Virus record (IMG/VR): IMGVR_UViG_2529293060_000014
DNA: 41,046 nucleotides
Strand: one strand, 5' to 3'
Origin: a virus
Taxonomy: Duplodnaviria; Heunggongvirae; Uroviricota; Caudoviricetes
Positions 1,184-37,155 of this stretch are shown here, one piece after another; the first letter of the stretch is position 1, and the number at the start of each line of letters is the position of its first letter. Under the pieces are notes generated by a model. It was not told the DNA's origin. It ran no database searches and worked only from the letters and a program-made list of their open reading frames with translations. The position numbers were made by a program, and so were the translations under genes.

Positions 1184-1666
1184 ATGGAAGAACTTCACTT
1201 TGTTTACATCAATGCAAATGGTCGTATCGGTGTTCACTCTATACAGAGCATCAGTTATAGCGAAAATCATATACAGGGCATTTGTAAGAACACCGATCGA
1301 ATAAAAACCTTCCGAAAAGACCGCATTCTTAAACAGTACGATTCACCAGAACAAGCCATTCAGGAATGCGCGTCATTCCTCCCCGAAAGCTACTCACATC
1401 TCACTAAGCAGTCTGGTCCGAAAAAAAATACATTCGATGTGTGTTTCACCGGATTTAAGAAAGCAGATAAAGAAAGATTGGTTGATAAGGCGAATGAACA
1501 AGGATTAACGGTAAGAACCTCTGTAACCCAAAGCCTTCAGATGCTCTGTTGCGGTTACAATGCAGGCCCATCAAAAGTATCGGCAGCCAGGATGAAAGGC
1601 ACAATCATCATAGATGAGCCTGGCTTTATACATTTTCTTGAAACGGGTGAGATCCCAGATGAATAA
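1184..1666 (+). CDS. hypothetical prophage cargo protein with C-terminal BRCT-like domain
   Basis: 160-aa ORF with AAAGAGG Shine-Dalgarno 6 nt upstream of ATG; C-terminal ~75 aa (VCFTGFKKADKERLVDKANEQGLTVRTSVTQSL...GPSKVSAARMKGTIIIDEPGFIHFLETGE) follows the BRCT pattern of NAD-ligase C-termini; N-terminal ~80 aa unassigned. Confidence 0.6.
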   Translation: MEELHFVYINANGRIGVHSIQSISYSENHIQGICKNTDRIKTFRKDRILKQYDSPEQAIQECASFLPESYSHLTKQSGPKKNTFDVCFTGFKKADKERLVDKANEQGLTVRTSVTQSLQMLCCGYNAGPSKVSAARMKGTIIIDEPGFIHFLETGEIPDE

Positions 1667-20275: not shown

Positions 20276-22042
20276 ATGAACACCACACTGACACCCGCAG
20301 ATCTCGATCCCCGTCGGCAGGCCATGCTGCTGTACTTTCAGGGATACCGCGTAGCCCGCATTGCTGAAATGCTGGGCGAGAAAGTTGCAACCGTTCACAG
20401 CTGGAAAAAACGCGACAAGTGGGGTGACTATGGGCCGCTGGATCAGATGCAGCTCACCACCGCCGCACGCTACTGCCAGCTCATTATGAAGGAGCACAAA
20501 GAAGGGAAAGATTTCAAAGAGATTGACCTGCTGGCGCGCCAGTCGGAACGCCACGCGCGGATCGGCAAGTTTAACAATGGCGGCAACGAAGCCGACTTAA
20601 ACCCTAACGTCGCCAACCGCAACAAAGGCCCGCGCCGTCAGCCGGAAAAGAATGTTTTCACCGATGAGCAGATTGAGAAGCTGGAAGAAATCTTCCATTC
20701 CTCCATGTTCAACTACCAGCGCCACTGGTGGGAAGCCGGAAAAACCAACCGCATCCGCAACCTGCTGAAGTCACGCCAGATCGGCGCGACCTTTTACTTT
20801 GCCCGTGAAGCCCTGATTGACGCTCTGCTTACCGGACGTAACCAGATTTTCCTTTCCGCCAGCAAGGCACAGGCCCACGTCTTTAAGCAGTACATCATCG
20901 ACTTCGCCAAAGAAGTGGAAGTGGAGCTGAAAGGCGATCCGATGGTGCTTCCCAACGGGGCCACACTGTATTTCCTCGGCACCAATGCCCGCACGGCCCA
21001 GAGTTACCACGGCAACCTGTATCTGGATGAATATTTCTGGATACCGAAATTCCAGGAGCTGCGCAAAGTGGCTTCCGGTATGGCTATTCACAAAAAATGG
21101 CGACAAACCTATTTTTCCACGCCATCCAGCCTGACACACAGTGCTTATCCGTTCTGGTCCGGTGCGCTATTCAACCGTGGGCGCAATAAAGCCGACAAGG
21201 TGGACATCGACCTGTCCCACAGCAATCTGGCTCCAGGCCTGCTGTGTGCAGACGGGCAATACCGCCAGATAGTCACCGTGGAAGATGCGGTGCGCGGCGG
21301 CTGTAACCTGTTCGACCTTGACCAGTTGCGCATGGAATACAGCCCGGACGAATACCAGAACCTGCTGATGTGTGAATTCGTGGACGATCTCGCGTCCGTG
21401 TTCCCGCTCAGCGAGCTGCAGGCGTGCATGGTGGACAGCTGGGAAGTCTGGACCGACTTTCATGCACTGGCCCTGCGCCCGTTTGGCTGGCGCGAAGTGT
21501 GGATCGGTTATGACCCGGCAAAAGGTACGCAAAACGGCGACAGCGCCGGGTGCGTGGTGGTGGCACCGCCAGCCGTGCCGGGCGGTAAGTTCCGCATTCT
21601 TGAGCGTCACCAGTGGCGCGGGATGGACTTCCGCGCCCAGGCTGACGCCATCAAAAAACTGACCGAACAGTACAACGTGACATACATCGGCATCGACTCA
21701 ACTGGCGTCGGCCACGGGGTTTACGAGAACGTGAAAGCGTTTTTTCCAGCCGTCCGGGAGTTTGTCTACAACCCCAACGTTAAAAACGCCCTGGTACTCA
21801 AGGCCTACGACATTATCAGCCACCGCCGTCTGGAGTTTGACGCCGGGCACACCGACATTGCGCAGTCATTCATGGCAATCCGTCGCGCCACCACCGCCAG
21901 CGGCAACCGCCCGACCTATGAAGCCAGCCGCAGCGAAGAAGCCAGCCACGCCGATCTGGCTTGGGCAACGATGCACGCATTGTTTAACGAACCGCTGCAG
22001 GGCGAATCCGCCAATACCAGCAATATTGTGGAGATTTTTTGA
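20276..22042 (+). CDS. P: terminase large (ATPase) subunit
   Basis: 588 aa; N-terminus resembles P2 gpP as recalled; followed by the portal gene with overlapping stop/start. Confidence 0.9.
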   Translation: MNTTLTPADLDPRRQAMLLYFQGYRVARIAEMLGEKVATVHSWKKRDKWGDYGPLDQMQLTTAARYCQLIMKEHKEGKDFKEIDLLARQSERHARIGKFNNGGNEADLNPNVANRNKGPRRQPEKNVFTDEQIEKLEEIFHSSMFNYQRHWWEAGKTNRIRNLLKSRQIGATFYFAREALIDALLTGRNQIFLSASKAQAHVFKQYIIDFAKEVEVELKGDPMVLPNGATLYFLGTNARTAQSYHGNLYLDEYFWIPKFQELRKVASGMAIHKKWRQTYFSTPSSLTHSAYPFWSGALFNRGRNKADKVDIDLSHSNLAPGLLCADGQYRQIVTVEDAVRGGCNLFDLDQLRMEYSPDEYQNLLMCEFVDDLASVFPLSELQACMVDSWEVWTDFHALALRPFGWREVWIGYDPAKGTQNGDSAGCVVVAPPAVPGGKFRILERHQWRGMDFRAQADAIKKLTEQYNVTYIGIDSTGVGHGVYENVKAFFPAVREFVYNPNVKNALVLKAYDIISHRRLEFDAGHTDIAQSFMAIRRATTASGNRPTYEASRSEEASHADLAWATMHALFNEPLQGESANTSNIVEIF

Positions 22043-23098: not shown

Positions 23099-24076
23099 CT
23101 AAATCAGAAAGTGACTCATATTAGATCTATAAATATCAGAATTTATCTTAATTTTGCTTATTGACTCAGATATTACATTCATCAGTGAATCATAGTCTTG
23201 ACTAGTGCGCAAGGGATTAGCCAATTCATTATCAACAAGTTGTTGAGTTCCTTCGCAATTAAGTCCCAGTGGATTATCAGCCTTATGCGGTACAACAGCA
23301 AAAATAGGTCTTGCCGCTTTAATAGCAAAATCCGCCTGCGTCATTGTCCCACTATTTTTTGCTGCTTCGATTAGTATCGAAACTGCTGATAAACCTACCT
23401 GGATTCTGTTGCGTTGCACAAATGACTGCTTGAATGCAGGCCTCCCTACAGGATACTCAGAAATCCAAGCCCCACCGTTAGATAAAATTTCATTTGCTAA
23501 TCTAGCATTTTGTTTAGGCTTAGCGCTCTCTAAACCATGAGCTAATACAGCAATTGTTTTAGCACCTGCCTTAAGAGCTGCCTTGTGTGCATTTGTATCA
23601 GTACCAATAGCTAGGCCGCTTACAATCACCACACCTCTTTCACAGATTTTCTTGGTAATTCTCTTCGTAATTTCTTCCCCTGCCATAGAAACTTCACGAG
23701 AACCAACAATTGCAACTCCTGGCATCTCACTAAGAATATTTACGTCCCCCTTCAAATATAACATTGCTGGGGGATTTGGCGTAATTGCTAAACAAATAGG
23801 GTATTTAGCATCTCCAAAAGGAATTGGAACAATCCCCAATGACAAATGCTTGCTCAAATAGTCTTCAGCATTATGCAATGACGCTATAGAAAAGGCGGAT
23901 TTTAAAATCCCGGCTGAATTAACACACTCAACCAATTCATATTCATCGGAAATAATATGGAATGGAATATCGTTAAATAATTTAAGCAACCCTTGTTCTG
24001 ATGCAAGTCTATCAACCTGTACCGATAGACCTAACAATATTTTGAATTGGGAAGGGTGCATTATTTCACTCCTCAT
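23099..24076 (-). CDS. DprA/Smf-like Rossmann-fold protein (ShosA-like putative antitoxin)
   Basis: 325 aa; central VAIVGSREVS...GVVIVSGLAIGTDTNAHKAALKAGAKTIAVLAHGLE...YP...RNRI matches the DprA nucleotide-binding fold; AT-rich; overlaps the upstream PRTase gene by 11 nt. Confidence 0.7.
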   Translation of the reverse strand: MRSEIMHPSQFKILLGLSVQVDRLASEQGLLKLFNDIPFHIISDEYELVECVNSAGILKSAFSIASLHNAEDYLSKHLSLGIVPIPFGDAKYPICLAITPNPPAMLYLKGDVNILSEMPGVAIVGSREVSMAGEEITKRITKKICERGVVIVSGLAIGTDTNAHKAALKAGAKTIAVLAHGLESAKPKQNARLANEILSNGGAWISEYPVGRPAFKQSFVQRNRIQVGLSAVSILIEAAKNSGTMTQADFAIKAARPIFAVVPHKADNPLGLNCEGTQQLVDNELANPLRTSQDYDSLMNVISESISKIKINSDIYRSNMSHFLI

Positions 24077-24635
24077 AATTAGCTGTTTCTAGTAACGCCA
24101 GTGGCAATATTGTCTTTGCGCCTGCATATCTTAACAGATAATAGCACGCCGTCATACTCCCCCCAGTTGTAGTAACATCATCAATAAGGAGAATAACCTT
24201 ATCAGCCACATTGGATGTAACTCCGATTGTTGACATATGATGTTCGACAGAACGATCTCCGCCCCCCTTATGAGCACTCACTACTGTTGTTTTTCTCTGT
24301 AATGATTGGTTATATACAGCATTAGGAAATTTTTTCGCAATATCTTGCGCTATTTTTATTAAAGCTTGAGATACTTTTCCCTCAGCATGAGAAGGAACAA
24401 TTGTTATCTCAAAGGGCACGTCGGTAAAAGCAACCCTACCAATCACATAGCTTTGGAGGCTAGAAGTTAAAAGTTGGGTAAAAATATTAACAGCCTTTGC
24501 ATACCCGGAATTTGAAGCGTCCTTCAAATCCATCATTGCCTTTGAAAGTCTATCCCCGGAACGAGGATTTCGCTCTCCTCGATATCGCCAAGGATGATAT
24601 GTACCGCAAGAGTAAATTTTGATTGGCCCCATCAT
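24066..24635 (-). CDS. phosphoribosyltransferase-domain protein (ShosT-like putative toxin/effector)
   Basis: 189 aa; C-terminal type-I PRTase motif VILLIDDVTTTGGSMTA; AT-rich codon usage unlike the phage core. Confidence 0.7.
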   Translation of the reverse strand: MMGPIKIYSCGTYHPWRYRGERNPRSGDRLSKAMMDLKDASNSGYAKAVNIFTQLLTSSLQSYVIGRVAFTDVPFEITIVPSHAEGKVSQALIKIAQDIAKKFPNAVYNQSLQRKTTVVSAHKGGGDRSVEHHMSTIGVTSNVADKVILLIDDVTTTGGSMTACYYLLRYAGAKTILPLALLETANYEE

Positions 24636-31756: not shown

Positions 31757-32389
31757 ATGTTAAACATCAGAATGGGTTCCGATACGGGAGGTAAAGCAGC
31801 TATTGAGAGGCTGCTTGCGGCTTATGGATTCACAACTAAGCAGGCATTAAGTGAGCACCTGAATGTCTCAAAAAGCACTATGGCAAACAGAGTGTTACGT
31901 GACAGCTTTCCTGCTGACTGGATAATTCAGTGCGCACTAGAAACCGGTGTTTCGTTGCTTTGGTTAGCTACAGGACAGGGAAGCATGAAAGCAGGATCTG
32001 AGACTGAAAAAAGATCTCACAATGAGAACAAACAAGCAATTAAACCGTTATCTAAACTCATAACTCCATCTATTCCTAAAGGAACCTTGGAGAATGGACA
32101 ACTCAGTATTGATGAAGAGATTTTCCTAGACCACAGCATATTACCTGCAAATTATGAAGAATCGATGTTCTTAGAAACCCCTACTGATTGTTATCTCATC
32201 GATAAATCAGTTAAACAAGTCAGCAATGGATTCTGGCTTATCAATATTGATGGAATGATTATTATTGCAAAAATTATGCGGATTCCCGGCAATAAGATTG
32301 TAGTAAATCAAGATGAAGCGTCTTTCGAGTGCTCTGCTGATGATGTGGAAGTTATTGGGCGTGCAGTCAAAGTAATAAAGAGTATCTAA
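31757..32389 (+). CDS. cI: CI immunity repressor (186 CI family)
   Basis: 210 aa; N-terminal HTH; ...CALETG..L.WL.TG.G motif and C-terminal domain resembling 186 CI as recalled. Confidence 0.8.
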   Translation: MLNIRMGSDTGGKAAIERLLAAYGFTTKQALSEHLNVSKSTMANRVLRDSFPADWIIQCALETGVSLLWLATGQGSMKAGSETEKRSHNENKQAIKPLSKLITPSIPKGTLENGQLSIDEEIFLDHSILPANYEESMFLETPTDCYLIDKSVKQVSNGFWLINIDGMIIIAKIMRIPGNKIVVNQDEASFECSADDVEVIGRAVKVIKSI

Positions 32390-32391
32390 AC

Positions 32392-33408
32392 ATGACTGTC
32401 AGAAAACAGCCAAACGGCAAATGGTTGTGTGAGTGCTATCCCAATGGACGCAATGGCAAGCGCGTGCGTAAGCAATTTGCTACGAAAGGAGAAGCCATTG
32501 CTTTTGAAAGCTTCACAATGGAAGAAGTGAATAAAAAACCGTGGCTAGGTGAAAAGGATGATCGGCGACGCCTATCAGAATTAATTGAGCTTTGGTATTC
32601 CCTGTATGGCCAGACACTCGCAGACCCCAAGCGCCTCATGGCGAAACTTAGAATTATCTGTAATGGTCTAGGCGACCCCATCGCCTCAGAACTGACAGCC
32701 GGTGACTTTACAAAATACCGCGAAGCACGGTTAAAAGGCGACGTTCGTAACGAAGACGGCACACTAATGTCGCCAGTAAAACCACGCACGGTGAATCTTG
32801 AGCAACGTAACCTATCATCGGTTTTCGGCACATTGAAAAAACTAGGCCACTGGTCAGCACCAAATCCTCTCGCCGGGCTGCCAACATTTAAAATCGCTGA
32901 GGGGGAACTGGCGTTCCTGACCTCGGAAGAAATTAAACGTCTGCTAGATGCCTGCGCTGATTCTCAAAACCCCAGTCTGCTTTTGATTGCAAAAATATGC
33001 CTGGCCACCGGCGCACGCTGGAGTGAAGCCGAAAACCTGCAGGGCCATCAGTTATCTAAATACCGCATCACTTATACCAAGACGAAGGGCAAGAAAAACC
33101 GCACCGTGCCGATATCTCAAGATCTGTATGACGAACTCCCCAAGAACAGAGGGAAGCTATTCACCCCGTGCAGAAAAGCCTTTGAACGGGCAGTAAAGCG
33201 AGCTGGCATCGAGCTGCCAGAGGGCCAATGCACTCACGTGCTACGTCATACATTCGCCAGTCATTTTATGATGAATGGCGGAAACATACTGGTCCTACGC
33301 GATATTCTGGGCCATGCCGATATAAAAATGACGATGATTTACGCCCACTTTTCGCCGGATCATCTTGAAGATGCAGTTACTAAAAACCCTTTATGCAACT
33401 TAAGATAG
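32392..33408 (+). CDS. int: tyrosine integrase (P2/186 type)
   Basis: 338 aa; C-terminal HVLRHTFASHFMMNGGNILVLRDILGHADIKMTMIYAHF (R-H-R-Y catalytic box); directly downstream of cI. Confidence 0.9.
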   Translation: MTVRKQPNGKWLCECYPNGRNGKRVRKQFATKGEAIAFESFTMEEVNKKPWLGEKDDRRRLSELIELWYSLYGQTLADPKRLMAKLRIICNGLGDPIASELTAGDFTKYREARLKGDVRNEDGTLMSPVKPRTVNLEQRNLSSVFGTLKKLGHWSAPNPLAGLPTFKIAEGELAFLTSEEIKRLLDACADSQNPSLLLIAKICLATGARWSEAENLQGHQLSKYRITYTKTKGKKNRTVPISQDLYDELPKNRGKLFTPCRKAFERAVKRAGIELPEGQCTHVLRHTFASHFMMNGGNILVLRDILGHADIKMTMIYAHFSPDHLEDAVTKNPLCNLR

Positions 33409-33786: not shown

Positions 33787-35523
33787 CTACTCAAGAAGAT
33801 ATTCTAACTCATCTTTTATCGGGATAACTTGCTCATAAAGTCGGTGATATGACTTCCCAATTGCGCCTCTGAATTGTATTAACTTTGGTGGCTTGTTACC
33901 TATATTAATAATATGGTCTTGAGCTATACCTGGGTAGGGATCAATAAATACAATTTCAGATATACCTAACTGATAAGCTTTTTTCGCACACAGCTCACAG
34001 GGACTGGCAGTTGTATATAACCTCCCCCCCTGAACGCCAATGCCACCATATTTTGCAAGTTGTAAAAATGCGTTTTCCTCAGCATGTAATGCACGTGTAT
34101 GAACTTGATTACCTTTTTTATCTTTATCAAGATCATTATGTATATCTTTAAAACAATAAGATAAGTTCCTGCCTCTATAAATATCACCAGTTTTATCTAT
34201 CGCCCTAAAATTTAATAGTTTCTCATTAGCTTTAATTCTGAAAGAACTATTATTTCTCTCATAATAACTGTACACTTTTTCATCAAAGTCGTTCATTAGG
34301 CCATCTAGCGATCTCATAGAGCAAGGAATCTGACCGTTGGCGACATCATTCCAACCCACTGATTTTATTGAATTTTCACCATCAGTTACTACAGCTCCCA
34401 CCTGTCTAGATATACAACCAGAGTTTAATTTTACCGTATACGCAACTTGCATAACCCTTTCCATTGCAGTAGGTGTTATCAGACCAGGATGCTTCATCAG
34501 TGCGATGTACCACGCTAATTGTGCTTTTAAAATATTGTCATTATCAAATTCATTTTTTGGGTTAAAAATGTGTATATCTGATAGTTCAATGCATTTAGTT
34601 ACATTTGGATTAGTGAGATGTTTGTAAGAGTTATCACCTTTACCTGACTCTACAGAATCTATTTCCTCTATCTGCTTTTCAGAAAACTTATGTAGTTTCC
34701 GCAAATAGTTTGTTCGATGTTCATCTGGGGCATTTATTGACATTAAATGAAATGCAGAATATCTATCCTTAAAAAATTTTGCTTCATATGGATTTCTAAT
34801 AGCATCTATGACAATTAATGCGTTATCTCTTTTGCTTTTTCTTATTAATTTAATAACCCTATTAATAGTTTCCGGCAAATGAAAAACAGATTTAGGTATA
34901 AACTCTTTATCTTCAAAATCGACTTCAATACGCCCACGGCGTCTAATTGACTTACCTGCTAACTGATAGACTGAAACATATAAATTTGAGTTTATCGCAT
35001 TTAGTTCAGCTTTGAATTCCTTAGTAAATTTTCTAACTAACCTCAAAATTGATATAAATTTATTAATCGTTTTTTCATTAAGCTTCAATTCACTATTATG
35101 ATCAAGCAAATTCTCAATTACATTTTTAAATCTTGTTAAAATGAGATTATCTGAAAATACACCAAAAGTTAATACATTATCTAAATGCTCTTTACTGATA
35201 GATTTATTAGATGATAGAATAAACTCAGAAGCTTCTTCAACTGTTAACATCAAAAGATACGCTGAGATTAGGTCACTCACCTTAATTGAGTAAAAATTTT
35301 CCCAGTGATTTTCTGCGAATTTTTTAACTATATTATAACGATGGACATCCAATCCCTTGTAAAAACCCTGTAATTTACTTACATCAGGGAAGACTGTTTT
35401 TTCGTTTTCAAGAATATTAGCTGTTGTTGTGCAACCAGAACCAGTTCGACCTGTCAAACCGACTAAAATAAACTGCCCATTTTCAAGGAAAAGCTCACTA
35501 ACGAATTTTTTTTCTTTCATCAC
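33787..35523 (-). CDS. P-loop NTPase/kinase + cytidine (dCMP/dCTP) deaminase fusion protein, AvcD / anti-phage dCTP-deaminase-like
   Basis: 578 aa; N-terminal Walker-A-like GLTGRTGSGCTTT (Cys in the usual Lys position); C-terminal zinc-deaminase signature HAEENA...SPCELCAKKA; about 30% GC, unlike the phage core. Confidence 0.6.
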   Translation of the reverse strand: MMKEKKFVSELFLENGQFILVGLTGRTGSGCTTTANILENEKTVFPDVSKLQGFYKGLDVHRYNIVKKFAENHWENFYSIKVSDLISAYLLMLTVEEASEFILSSNKSISKEHLDNVLTFGVFSDNLILTRFKNVIENLLDHNSELKLNEKTINKFISILRLVRKFTKEFKAELNAINSNLYVSVYQLAGKSIRRRGRIEVDFEDKEFIPKSVFHLPETINRVIKLIRKSKRDNALIVIDAIRNPYEAKFFKDRYSAFHLMSINAPDEHRTNYLRKLHKFSEKQIEEIDSVESGKGDNSYKHLTNPNVTKCIELSDIHIFNPKNEFDNDNILKAQLAWYIALMKHPGLITPTAMERVMQVAYTVKLNSGCISRQVGAVVTDGENSIKSVGWNDVANGQIPCSMRSLDGLMNDFDEKVYSYYERNNSSFRIKANEKLLNFRAIDKTGDIYRGRNLSYCFKDIHNDLDKDKKGNQVHTRALHAEENAFLQLAKYGGIGVQGGRLYTTASPCELCAKKAYQLGISEIVFIDPYPGIAQDHIINIGNKPPKLIQFRGAIGKSYHRLYEQVIPIKDELEYLLE

Positions 35524-35715
35524 GTCCCACTTATGAATGTAAGAATATTCAACATATTAATTATAATTTATTAACTCATTTTGTTCTAGATACTTGATGT
35601 AATGGCGGCACTTTGGCGACGGAGCATTAAAAACGCGTAAGACGAGCAAATACAACAAAACACTAACACATTGTTTTTAAATATAAATAGCTGTTTTTAC
35701 TATACTAAAAATGGT

Positions 35716-35760
35716 ATGTAGGAATTTCGGACGCGGGTTCAACTCCCGCCAGCTCCACCA
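35716..35760. repeat. attR core: second copy of the 45-bp ssrA 3' end
   Basis: Identical to 1016-1060; the upstream tmRNA body is absent, so this is a displaced 3' fragment. Confidence 0.85.
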
Positions 35761-35828: not shown

Positions 35829-35925
35829 ACGTCTATTGTCGTCCAGTGAGAATTGCTGAGAACTACGAGTTATGGCACCCTGAATGGGACCCACTAAGAA
35901 GGGTCCAAAAACCGAGGGTCCCAAA

Positions 35926-37155
35926 ATGGCAAAAATCGCTAAGAAGCTCACTGACACTGAAATCAAAAGCACCAAGCCAGCCGATAAAGAAATCAACTTG
36001 TTTGACGGTGATGGTCTGATTCTACGAATCGCTCCTTTGGCGAAAGGAGGCAAGAAAAATTGGTATTTCAGGTATGCAGTACCAGTGAGCAAGAAAAGAA
36101 CCAAAATGAGCCTTGGGACATATCCTCACCTTACCCTTGCAAGAGCCAGAGCCTTACGTGATGAATATCTCTCCTTTCTGGCAAATGGTGTTGATCCCCA
36201 AATCCATAACAACGATAAGGCGAAGGCATTAAAGAGTGCTACTGAGCACACTCTCCAAGCCGTAGCGCGGAAATGGTTAGATGAGAAGGTAAAGACATCA
36301 GGTATCTCACAAGACCATGCAGCAGACATCTGGCGCAGCTTAGAGAGAAATGTCTTTCCCGGTCTGGGTAATGTCCCTATCAATGAGATCCGACCTAAGC
36401 TCTTAAAACAACACCTTGATCCTATTGAGCAACGAGGCGTATTGGAAACTCTACGCCGTATCATTTCACGTCTGAATGAAATCTTCCGGTGGGCAGCTAC
36501 TGAAGAACTTATTGAGTTCAACCCGGCTGACAACCTTGGTCAAAGATTCAGTAAACCAAAAAAGCAAAATATGCCTGCCCTTCCCCCAAGCGAATTGCCA
36601 AGGTTTATGGAATCTTTGACGAATGCGTCAATCCGGTTGGAAACACGTATGCTAATTGAATGGCAATTGTTGACATGGGTTCGTCCGGGTGAAGCCGTTC
36701 GCGCAAGGTGGTCTGATATTGATACAACCAACAGCATTTGGAACATTCCTGCTGATTTCATGAAAATGAAAAAGCTTCACAAAGTTCCTTTGAGTAAAGA
36801 AGCTTTGCGCATCCTTGAATTAATGAAATCAATAAGTGGGCATAGAGAATGGGTTTTCCCCAGCATAAAAGCGCCTCTTAATCATATGCATGAACAAACA
36901 GCCAACGCAGCTATCATCCGAATGGGGTTCGGAGGCGAGCTTGTAGCTCACGGTATGCGTTCTATTGCACGAACAGCGGCAGAGGAGTCTGGTAAATTCA
37001 GAGCTGAAGTTCTTGAGGCAGCGCTTGCCCACTCGAAAAAAGATGAAATTATCGCAGCATACAATCGTGCAGAATATCTGATAGAGCGACAGAGTTTGAT
37101 GCAATGGTGGAGTGATTACGTTCAAGCTCAAAGATCAAATGCTCTGGTAGCCTAA
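35926..37155 (+). CDS. intA: P4/CP4-57-type tyrosine integrase
   Basis: Track ORF 35884-37155; start set at MAKIAKKLTDTEIKS by similarity to E. coli IntA (MARKTKPLTDTEIKAAKP...) as recalled; conserved HGMRSIARTAAEE and AYNRAEYL boxes. Confidence 0.85.
   Translation: MAKIAKKLTDTEIKSTKPADKEINLFDGDGLILRIAPLAKGGKKNWYFRYAVPVSKKRTKMSLGTYPHLTLARARALRDEYLSFLANGVDPQIHNNDKAKALKSATEHTLQAVARKWLDEKVKTSGISQDHAADIWRSLERNVFPGLGNVPINEIRPKLLKQHLDPIEQRGVLETLRRIISRLNEIFRWAATEELIEFNPADNLGQRFSKPKKQNMPALPPSELPRFMESLTNASIRLETRMLIEWQLLTWVRPGEAVRARWSDIDTTNSIWNIPADFMKMKKLHKVPLSKEALRILELMKSISGHREWVFPSIKAPLNHMHEQTANAAIIRMGFGGELVAHGMRSIARTAAEESGKFRAEVLEAALAHSKKDEIIAAYNRAEYLIERQSLMQWWSDYVQAQRSNALVA

Follow-up and report, generated by a model that had tools for sequence, protein, structure and literature searches.

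The first gene within a P2/186-like prophage of Escherichia coli, located at positions 1184–1666 of a 41,046-nt stretch of viral DNA (IMG/VR record IMGVR_UViG_2529293060_000014; the window, to the whole of which all coordinates refer), encodes a protein of 160 amino acids (aa) that is, according to its predicted structure, a two-domain, non-enzymatic fusion of a WYL and a BRCT domain. P2-like and some lambda-like temperate phages carry the gene as accessory cargo, usually directly behind the immunity repressor. By analogy with related domains, we suggest that the product is a lysogen-expressed reader of single-stranded DNA (ssDNA)/5'-phosphate junctions that acts in exclusion or defence, a reading to which we assign a probability of roughly 40%. 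The WYL and BRCT domains would together read a junction between single- and double-stranded DNA, a gap or a resected end. An ssDNA arm beside a 5'-phosphorylated duplex end would be expected to arise from invading or replicating foreign DNA and in recombination intermediates, and the prophage could turn the protein against superinfecting phages or other incoming DNA. The free-standing form may occupy such junctions, blocking ligation, recombination or replication restart, or may recruit a host factor; relatives fused to 1–5 transmembrane (TM) helices could link this sensor to the membrane, either as a tether or as an effector. The BRCT annotation (recent RefSeq releases already list a 'BRCT domain-containing protein') and the status of the gene as a transcribed moron are already known, whereas the assignment of the WYL domain, the conserved position beside repressors of several types, the split at attP, the membrane-fused variants and the defence-rich neighbourhood are new.

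The gene, its translation signal and the domains predicted in its product are as follows:
1184–1666, + strand: gene of the WYL-BRCT protein, ATG to TAA, 160 codons
1170–1176, + strand: Shine-Dalgarno element AAGAGG (as AAAGAGG), 7 nt 5' of the ATG; the equivalent AAAGGTGA is kept in orthologues
1190–1339, + strand: predicted WYL domain, aa 3–52, a five-stranded Sm/SH3-like barrel with the signature Y8 ... hIQGiC ... KTFRKDRI
1346–1435, + strand: two short predicted helices (aa 55–73), then a variable linker of lower confidence (aa 74–84) with indel-rich alignment columns
1436–1645, + strand: predicted BRCT domain, aa 85–154, from AlphaFold2, Foldseek and profile search
1646–1663, + strand: ETGEIPDE tail (aa 155–160), from alignment A1

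The C-terminal half of the protein is modelled as a BRCT fold of the DNA-binding RFC1/LigA type, in agreement with the original prediction, which had assigned a BRCT fold to this half from sequence. The AlphaFold2 model, built with a 35-sequence alignment, reaches a predicted local distance difference test (pLDDT) score of 91.7 overall and 89–96 across BRCT residues 85–154, and Foldseek comparison with the PDB retrieves solved BRCT domains at a probability of 1.00, with yeast and human RFC1 first (root-mean-square deviation of 2.1–2.3 Å over 73–75 residues, 26–27% identity). When the family profile is compared with PDB sequences, the BRCT domains of RFC1 (E 2.6e-5) and Thermus LigA (3.2e-5) are matched, within a range extending to 2e-4. 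The window protein scores 19.5 bits against Pfam BRCT (PF00533; gathering cut-off 21.3), and the same model matches 27 of the 35 family members at E ≤ 0.01, relatives scoring 23–75 bits. The low predicted template modelling score (0.52) and a dip in pLDDT to 70 in block 71–80 point to two independent domains on a flexible linker, with an undefined relative orientation.

Residues T89, G90 and K131 are invariant in the family and K96 is at least 90% conserved. In DNA-binding BRCT domains of this type, the T/S-G pair that follows strand 1, a basic residue of helix 1 and the Lys of the G-x-x-K loop build the surface that contacts phosphate and DNA. We take the positions of T89, K96 and K131 to be equivalent to T415, R423 and K458 of human RFC1. 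In the profile alignment T89-G90, K131 and K96 pair with T166-G167, K209 and R174 of yeast Rfc1, where K209 is a channel residue at the external DNA site of RFC (PMC9293009). For the isolated RFC1 BRCT domain, a Kd of ~10 nM for DNA is given, with 5'-phosphate ends that have a 3' overhang as the preferred substrate (PMC9293009). The C-terminus past the last BRCT helix is also conserved (F-x-x-F-L-E-T-G-E-I-P-D/E, T154 and G155 at least 90%), and the ETGEIPDE tail may bind a partner.

Several databases label the gene product as an enzyme, namely a DNA ligase (PHROG 2561 and RefSeq phage records) or an exonuclease (the annotation in Cartapus, the related prophage of E. coli LF82), and these labels are almost certainly wrong. 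The protein does match PHROG 2561 'DNA ligase' at 2.5e-77, weak NCBIfam matches to LigA and to a DEDDh exonuclease are obtained, and annotations in phage records bear these names. However, the NCBIfam and PHROG ligase matches are confined to the terminal BRCT domain of LigA (positions 549–650 of 652) and the exonuclease match, NF004719, to the BRCT tail of that profile (positions 229–307 of 331), and since nothing beyond the terminal BRCT region of either enzyme is matched, we reject both labels. The name in PHROG is inherited. As a LigA, moreover, the protein is too short and its model lacks the adenylation (nucleotidyltransferase) domain, the oligonucleotide/oligosaccharide-binding fold, the zinc finger and the helix-hairpin-helix; as a DEDDh exonuclease, it lacks the DEDD domain. 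The misleading 'DNA ligase' and 'exonuclease' names that are spreading through phage databases are thereby corrected.

The N-terminal ~80 residues had initially been left unassigned and the protein regarded as a stand-alone BRCT protein. Instead, the fold of residues 3–52 and the Pfam matches of relatives identify a WYL barrel, to which the BRCT domain is joined. The five strands of this barrel (residues 3–9, 15–25, 29–34, 40–44 and 48–52) are predicted with pLDDT values of 91–96, and the N-terminal domain modelled alone scores 91.4. PafBC, DriD (including its ssDNA-bound form), BrxR and ssDNA-bound CapW dominate the top PDB matches of this domain in Foldseek, at probabilities of 0.97–0.99, and the WYL signature lines up with the PafBC and PafC motifs, in an alignment that lacks statistical significance. 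The Pfam WYL model (PF13280) matches 4 of the 35 alignment members and exceeds its gathering threshold of 21.8 bits in the relatives P0152 (28.5 bits), P0157 (25.1 bits) and P0203 (27.6 bits); a precomputed PF13280 assignment exists for P0097. No helix-turn-helix (HTH) family of Pfam is matched in the window protein, and its model comprises only the WYL barrel, the two short helices and the BRCT domain. With neither an N-terminal winged HTH (wHTH) nor a WCX domain, the protein would therefore not be a transcription factor of the PafBC/DriD/CapW/BrxR type. A WYL-BRCT fusion has been named once, within a list, by Makarova et al. 2014 (PMC4012209); beyond that line and a table of LF82 morons (PMC9928086), nothing was found in the literature on the family.

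Small BRCT proteins in prophages, described as unusual in the original prediction, are in fact recurrent in P2-like phages. Searched exhaustively with HMMER, 1.84 billion cluster representatives (clusters at 50% identity) yield 2736 family matches at E ≤ 1e-3, of which 886 reach 1e-10 and 197 reach 1e-30; the top matches are mostly free-standing proteins of 155–190 aa. Hydrophobic TM-like segments are present in ~30% of the family representatives (for example P0131, P0145, P0171, P0173 and P0204), and 43 of the 62 listed representatives that exceed 200 aa carry 1–5 of them, mostly N-terminal. In P2-like prophages of Pasteurellaceae and other taxa, some of the extended forms likewise lie in the slot beside the repressor (loci L046, L050, L054 and L057). 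Neither the ~230-aa C-terminal extension of some long relatives nor the soluble N-terminal extension of another has a Pfam match or a PDB sequence match. Among 50,697 phage records, members detectable by sequence occur only in temperate phages, namely P2-like phages of Escherichia, Yersinia, Mannheimia, Burkholderia and Vibrio and one lambda-like Pseudomonas phage.

The open reading frame (ORF) had been credited with a good ribosome-binding site, as is borne out by the AAGAGG element, and purifying selection on it is strong (ratio of nonsynonymous to synonymous substitution rates, dN/dS, of 0.04–0.11 wherever dS is unsaturated). Orthologues occupy the same position in six other enterobacterial genera, in prophages at ssrA with the same gene order, and 177 of 5426 complete E. 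coli genomes carry the ORF, 171 of them with at least 80% of its length at 97.9% nucleotide identity or more. Given these orthologues, the dN/dS values and the 171 carriers, the ORF is no chance reading frame, nor is it absent or disrupted in nearly all related prophages. Co-occurrence with the P2-like prophage end, suggested at the outset as a check, is seen as the full ssrA-ORF-ogr-D arrangement in 164 E. coli genomes. The ORF is linked to one ogr allele (185 genomes have that ogr and ~171 the ORF), and a scan of IMG/VR returned almost exclusively near-identical E. coli prophage ends, with no added diversity.

Transcription in the lysogen is documented for the ortholog in Cartapus. In the RNA-seq data of Misson et al. 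2023, 'LF82_783 putative exonuclease' is a Cartapus moron expressed 15-fold above the prophage background (PMC9928086), in line with the moron status proposed from the sequence. LF82_783 lies at 2736109–2736591 and corresponds to CARTA_32 (S1 Table of PMC9928086), and the LF82 match to the ORF (H93) has exactly these coordinates, with 98% amino-acid identity. Its log2 fragments per kilobase per million (fpkm) is 6.9/6.6 in LB, 9.1–9.5 in DMEM and 8.8 then 7.6–7.8 in macrophages, compared with 5.1/5.0, 8.0–8.4 and 9.3 then 8.1, respectively, for Cartapus cI and ~3 for the neighbouring D gene (PMC9928086). On this evidence the gene is transcribed in the lysogen at or above the level of cI. It is thus lineage-specific accessory cargo and a moron: its slot is variable, a minority of relatives carry it and the LF82 ortholog is transcribed in the lysogen.

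The setting of the gene is given by the following features of the window:
1–483: smpB, at the window start
698–1060: tmRNA gene ssrA
1016–1060: att core, the 45-nt 3' end of ssrA, at the ogr-proximal prophage junction (direct repeat D1, 100% identity)
1069–1096, + strand: phage-supplied intrinsic terminator, a 12-bp stem and T-run (−17.1 kcal/mol, z −4.5), directly 5' of the ORF
1109–1127: putative Int arm-type sites of attP, read from the sequence as TGGCGGCA-N4-TGGCGAC, with an inverted copy CTGTCGCCAT at 1149–1158
1668–1685: hairpin common to the convergent ORF and ogr, a bidirectional terminator
1693–1911, − strand: ogr late activator gene, convergent with the ORF
31757–32389, + strand: cI
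32392–33408, + strand: int
35716–35760: second copy of the att core at the int-proximal junction, an exact repeat of 1016–1060

The two att core copies bound a P2/186-like prophage of ~34.7 kb, and since the 45-nt core is exactly repeated at the far end, the ORF, whose ATG follows the core after 123 nt, is the first gene inside the prophage. Read from ssrA, the order is the ORF (+), ogr (−), D, U, T, tail, lysis and head genes, replication gene A, cII, apl, cI and int. The predicted location between the ssrA att core and ogr is therefore correct, but the name attL given to this junction holds only in the orientation of the window; in the P2 convention it is attR, because int is at the opposite end. 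Near-identical prophages, such as phages 500465-1 and Cartapus, are classed as Wadgaonvirus or Elveevirus. The slot between att and ogr is variable: in E. coli PEC1011 an unrelated 237-aa hypothetical protein (WP_000347141.1; L062 1600–2313), which has no Pfam or PADLOC match, occupies the same place and orientation, and in E. coli CH4794 (L063) the slot of a P2-like prophage at another site is empty, with ogr directly beside host DNA. The latter agrees with the statement that P2 has no gene here.

The terminator at 1069–1096, which is strong and separates the ORF from ssrA, stands in for the native ssrA terminator and is conserved in six genera, as is GTGGCGGCAAAATGGCG(A/G)CAG within the left arm-type repeats. 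A similar putative arm-type pair is found on the other arm (35603–35623), and from their sequence the repeats at 1109–1158 and 35603–35623 are probably the Int arm-type binding sites of attP. The left repeats fill the space in which one would look for a promoter of the ORF. A possible TTAACG-N16-TATAAA promoter is present in orthologues of other genera, within a segment that is missing in E. coli, where the ORF may be transcribed by read-through of the very abundant ssrA transcript, of which a low level would suffice, or from a weak promoter of its own. The gene had also been credited with its own terminator; the hairpin at 1668–1685 does exist, but serves the convergent ogr (−17.7 kcal/mol, followed by a U-run) better than the ORF (−10.8 kcal/mol, U-poor tail). 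Repeat D4 (1116–1141 versus 21094–21119, 77%) was set aside as a probable chance match.

Comparison of prophages indicates that the gene belongs characteristically to the immunity (repressor-int) operon rather than to the att edge itself. In Mannheimia phage PHL101, Vibrio phage PV94 and the 186-like contig L007, the gene starts 3–26 nt after the stop codon of the immunity repressor on the same strand and is followed by int or the D gene, and Serratia-like prophages have the order C-like repressor, Flk_N, gene, (YebY), int. Across 48 species-level loci from GTDB genomes, the repressor is immediately 5' on the same strand in 14, with gaps of mostly 7–32 nt, and is separated by one gene in 3 more; the E. 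coli arrangement ssrA-gene-ogr-D is shown by 6. Pfam analysis of 39 upstream genes yields Phage_CI_repr (8), Peptidase_S24 (9) and HTH_3 (11), and the gene is therefore associated with repressors of three types. In the lambda-like Pseudomonas phage, an S24 repressor and a small ORF precede the gene. No recurrent partner gene is found; Flk_N precedes the gene in only two related loci.

Adjacency to the immunity repressor and co-expression with it would also suit a modulator of lysogeny or induction, which would bind ssDNA gaps at the 5' junction and either shield them from RecFOR/RecA, thereby damping SOS and spontaneous induction, or report damage to the prophage switch. PafBC, DriD and CapW are ssDNA-activated damage sensors (from their PDB titles), and DinI-like genes are present in the same prophage. 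We nevertheless regard this as unlikely: the gene accompanies repressors of three unrelated types, including P2 C-like HTH proteins, with no co-variation with type seen, the protein lacks an HTH or other output domain, and the membrane-anchored variants and non-prophage loci fit poorly. P2-type prophages are, in addition, classically non-inducible.

In Yersinia phage MLG42, a virion-derived, circular record, cI, int, a 287-nt interval, the gene and eventually D follow each other on one strand (cI-int-(287 nt)-gene-...-D), and the order in Cartapus is cI-int-cargo-gene. From these orders it follows that in free phage DNA attP separates the gene from the cI-int operon upstream of it, and that integration splits the gene off to the far end of the prophage, behind ssrA. 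Transcription together with cI-int in free phage DNA, proximity to attP or int in several phages and the LigA-like BRCT could each be accommodated by a helper of the phage's own DNA transactions, binding annealed cos nicks or ends (for their protection or for LigA recruitment) or assisting Int recombination. A similar small protein is encoded by the non-P2 Vibrio phage SSP002; this 162-aa 'putative DNA ligase' (H9EB15) is the best viral structural match in BFVD, extends over the full length at 16% identity and may be a distant analogue outside the temperate P2-like phages. A helper role is nonetheless improbable, since the gene is missing from most P2-like prophages (~177 E. coli genomes have it versus about 1311 with a related D gene) and is therefore dispensable for the life cycle, tracks the repressor and not int in PHL101-like phages, is highly expressed in the established lysogen and exists in TM-fused variants.

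The neighbourhood of the gene is rich in defence genes or candidates. Known anti-phage systems fill the remaining cargo slots of the prophage in the window, and in other P2-like prophages the genes sharing the repressor-int slot are the PADLOC candidates PDC-S20 (KAP P-loop NTPase, 1e-82) and PDC-S39 (DUF7380/DUF4209, 2e-214):
L035 10468–11922, L032 11644–13164 and L038 10527–12314: PADLOC-candidate genes between the WYL-BRCT gene and int in other prophages
23099–24076, − strand: DprA-like gene of a Shosha (DprA-PRT) system (ShosA, 2.6e-70)
24066–24635, − strand: overlapping phosphoribosyltransferase gene of the same system (ShosT, 2.9e-18)
33787–35523, − strand: dCTP deaminase, 577 aa (PADLOC model, 1.2e-144), with a C-terminal cytidine/dCMP deaminase domain

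Given PDC-S20 and PDC-S39 between the WYL-BRCT gene and int, the repressor-int interval behaves as a cargo or defence slot. Among the roles suggested at the outset (interference with host repair or ligation, defence, counter-defence), the genomic context speaks for defence, or for exclusion. The Shosha genes (23099–24635) occupy the classical P2 hotspot between portal gene Q and replication gene A, and the dCTP deaminase gene is cargo of the interval from int to the att core and runs antiparallel to int. The int-att slot differs among near-identical prophages, with a 401-aa protein annotated as RES/NAD+-binding in Cartapus (L060 1508–2713) and a 343-aa hypothetical protein in E. coli SMN152SH1 (L005 34902–35933), neither of which has a Pfam or PADLOC match. 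According to a 2026 survey, in which the WYL-BRCT gene is unmentioned, P2-like phages have minor defence hotspots in their int-att and int-primase regions (PMC13586616). Directly after the second att core, at 35884–37155 (+), lies a P4-type tyrosine integrase gene (29% identity, E 5e-53, to an Arm-DNA-bind_3/Phage_integrase protein), and ssrA therefore harbours a second, tandemly integrated element; the right-hand neighbour in the near-identical genome of SMN152SH1 is a lambdoid prophage with NleG effectors.

A small, effector-less protein made solely of binding modules might equally act in counter-defence or as a decoy, sequestering the ssDNA or DNA-end signals of host immune or WYL-regulated systems or mimicking the LigA BRCT domain so as to titrate a host partner. 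Defence and anti-defence genes are found side by side in phage accessory slots, and the WYL regulators CapW and BrxR control CBASS and BREX (PDB titles). Such a role appears very improbable, however, given that the gene is expressed constitutively in the lysogen beside the prophage's own defence cargo, unlike an early lytic gene, that its detectable members in the phage records are confined to temperate P2-like and lambda-like phages, and that TM fusions exist.

Several observations weigh against a junction reader in exclusion or defence, and temper the probability given above. PADLOC-DB v2 contains no full-length component match to the window protein, the single match being limited to the BRCT domain of the candidate PDC-S48, and the family was not found in the anti-phage defence-system literature examined, nor is it linked there to phage resistance. 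The free-standing protein has no recognisable effector domain. For the window protein, the assignment of the N-terminal half as a WYL domain draws on its predicted fold and on relatives: Pfam WYL gives no match at E ≤ 10, and the Foldseek E-values of 0.015–0.2 are weak, as expected for a domain of just ~50 residues. DNA binding and the substrate preference are inferred, being carried over from homologous domains. No sigma-70 promoter was found at 1100–1183, upstream of the ORF. About half of the 48 loci (~24) lie outside recognisable prophages and have heterogeneous neighbours, with just scattered genes of mobile elements or defence (integrases, Mrr, McrB-like, AbiTii and AbiGi). The SSP002 look-alike could mean that the protein serves the DNA metabolism of the phage itself.

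A more far-reaching version of the exclusion or defence reading, which we put forward as doubtful, would see in the WYL-BRCT proteins a widespread and previously unrecognised group of single-protein immune sensors, in which the WYL domain engages the single-stranded arm and the BRCT domain the 5'-phosphorylated duplex end of foreign DNA that is gapped or resected. The free form would block the processing of invader DNA, the TM forms would damage the membrane as Cam1 does for CARF, and expression would come from the immunity operon, here after integration behind ssrA. If the exclusion or defence role itself holds, a very small DNA-structure reader, effector-less or membrane-fused, joins the genes of prophage competition, the repressor-adjacent slot of P2-like phages is a further cargo or defence site, and WYL domains gain an output other than transcription control; if that role is false, the gene is an ordinary conserved moron. 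Lysogens of pathogenic E. coli, among them the adherent-invasive strain LF82, express the gene at a high level, and its function is open to simple tests.

Among known genes, the closest counterpart is CARTA_32/LF82_783 of Cartapus, which is the same gene at the same ssrA/ogr position and one of two Cartapus morons (PMC9928086); it is annotated there as 'putative exonuclease', without further analysis. The C-terminal BRCT domain is shared with PDC-S48 (window protein residues 83–153 versus profile positions 335–406 of 411, E 1.8e-7), and longer relatives match the same stretch. However, the ~330 N-terminal residues of PDC-S48 are missing from the window protein, and PDC-S48 is itself a computational candidate only, of which no mention was found in the literature.

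The position of the gene resembles that of lambda rexA-rexB and of other exclusion genes found in immunity operons, in that a non-essential gene lies directly behind the immunity repressor and is transcribed in the lysogen. The likeness is one of analogy rather than homology, with no kinship in sequence or fold, and the free-standing form lacks an adjacent gene for a membrane partner, although the membrane-bound forms of the family recall the Rex layout of a cytoplasmic sensor plus a membrane protein. With the BRCT domains of RFC1 and LigA, the window protein shares the fold, profile similarity and the conserved T-G, basic and G-x-x-K positions. In those proteins, however, the BRCT domain accompanies a clamp-loader AAA+ module or a ligase catalytic core, whereas here it is predicted to accompany a WYL domain and no enzymatic domain. 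With PafBC, DriD, CapW and BrxR, the predicted N-terminal barrel fold is held in common, and its signature (...QGiC...tFRkDRi) lines up, short of significance, with the motifs of PafBC and PafC; DriD and CapW have been solved with ssDNA bound by the WYL region. These regulators possess a wHTH and a WCX domain, in contrast to the window protein, which has neither and in which the output is the BRCT domain.

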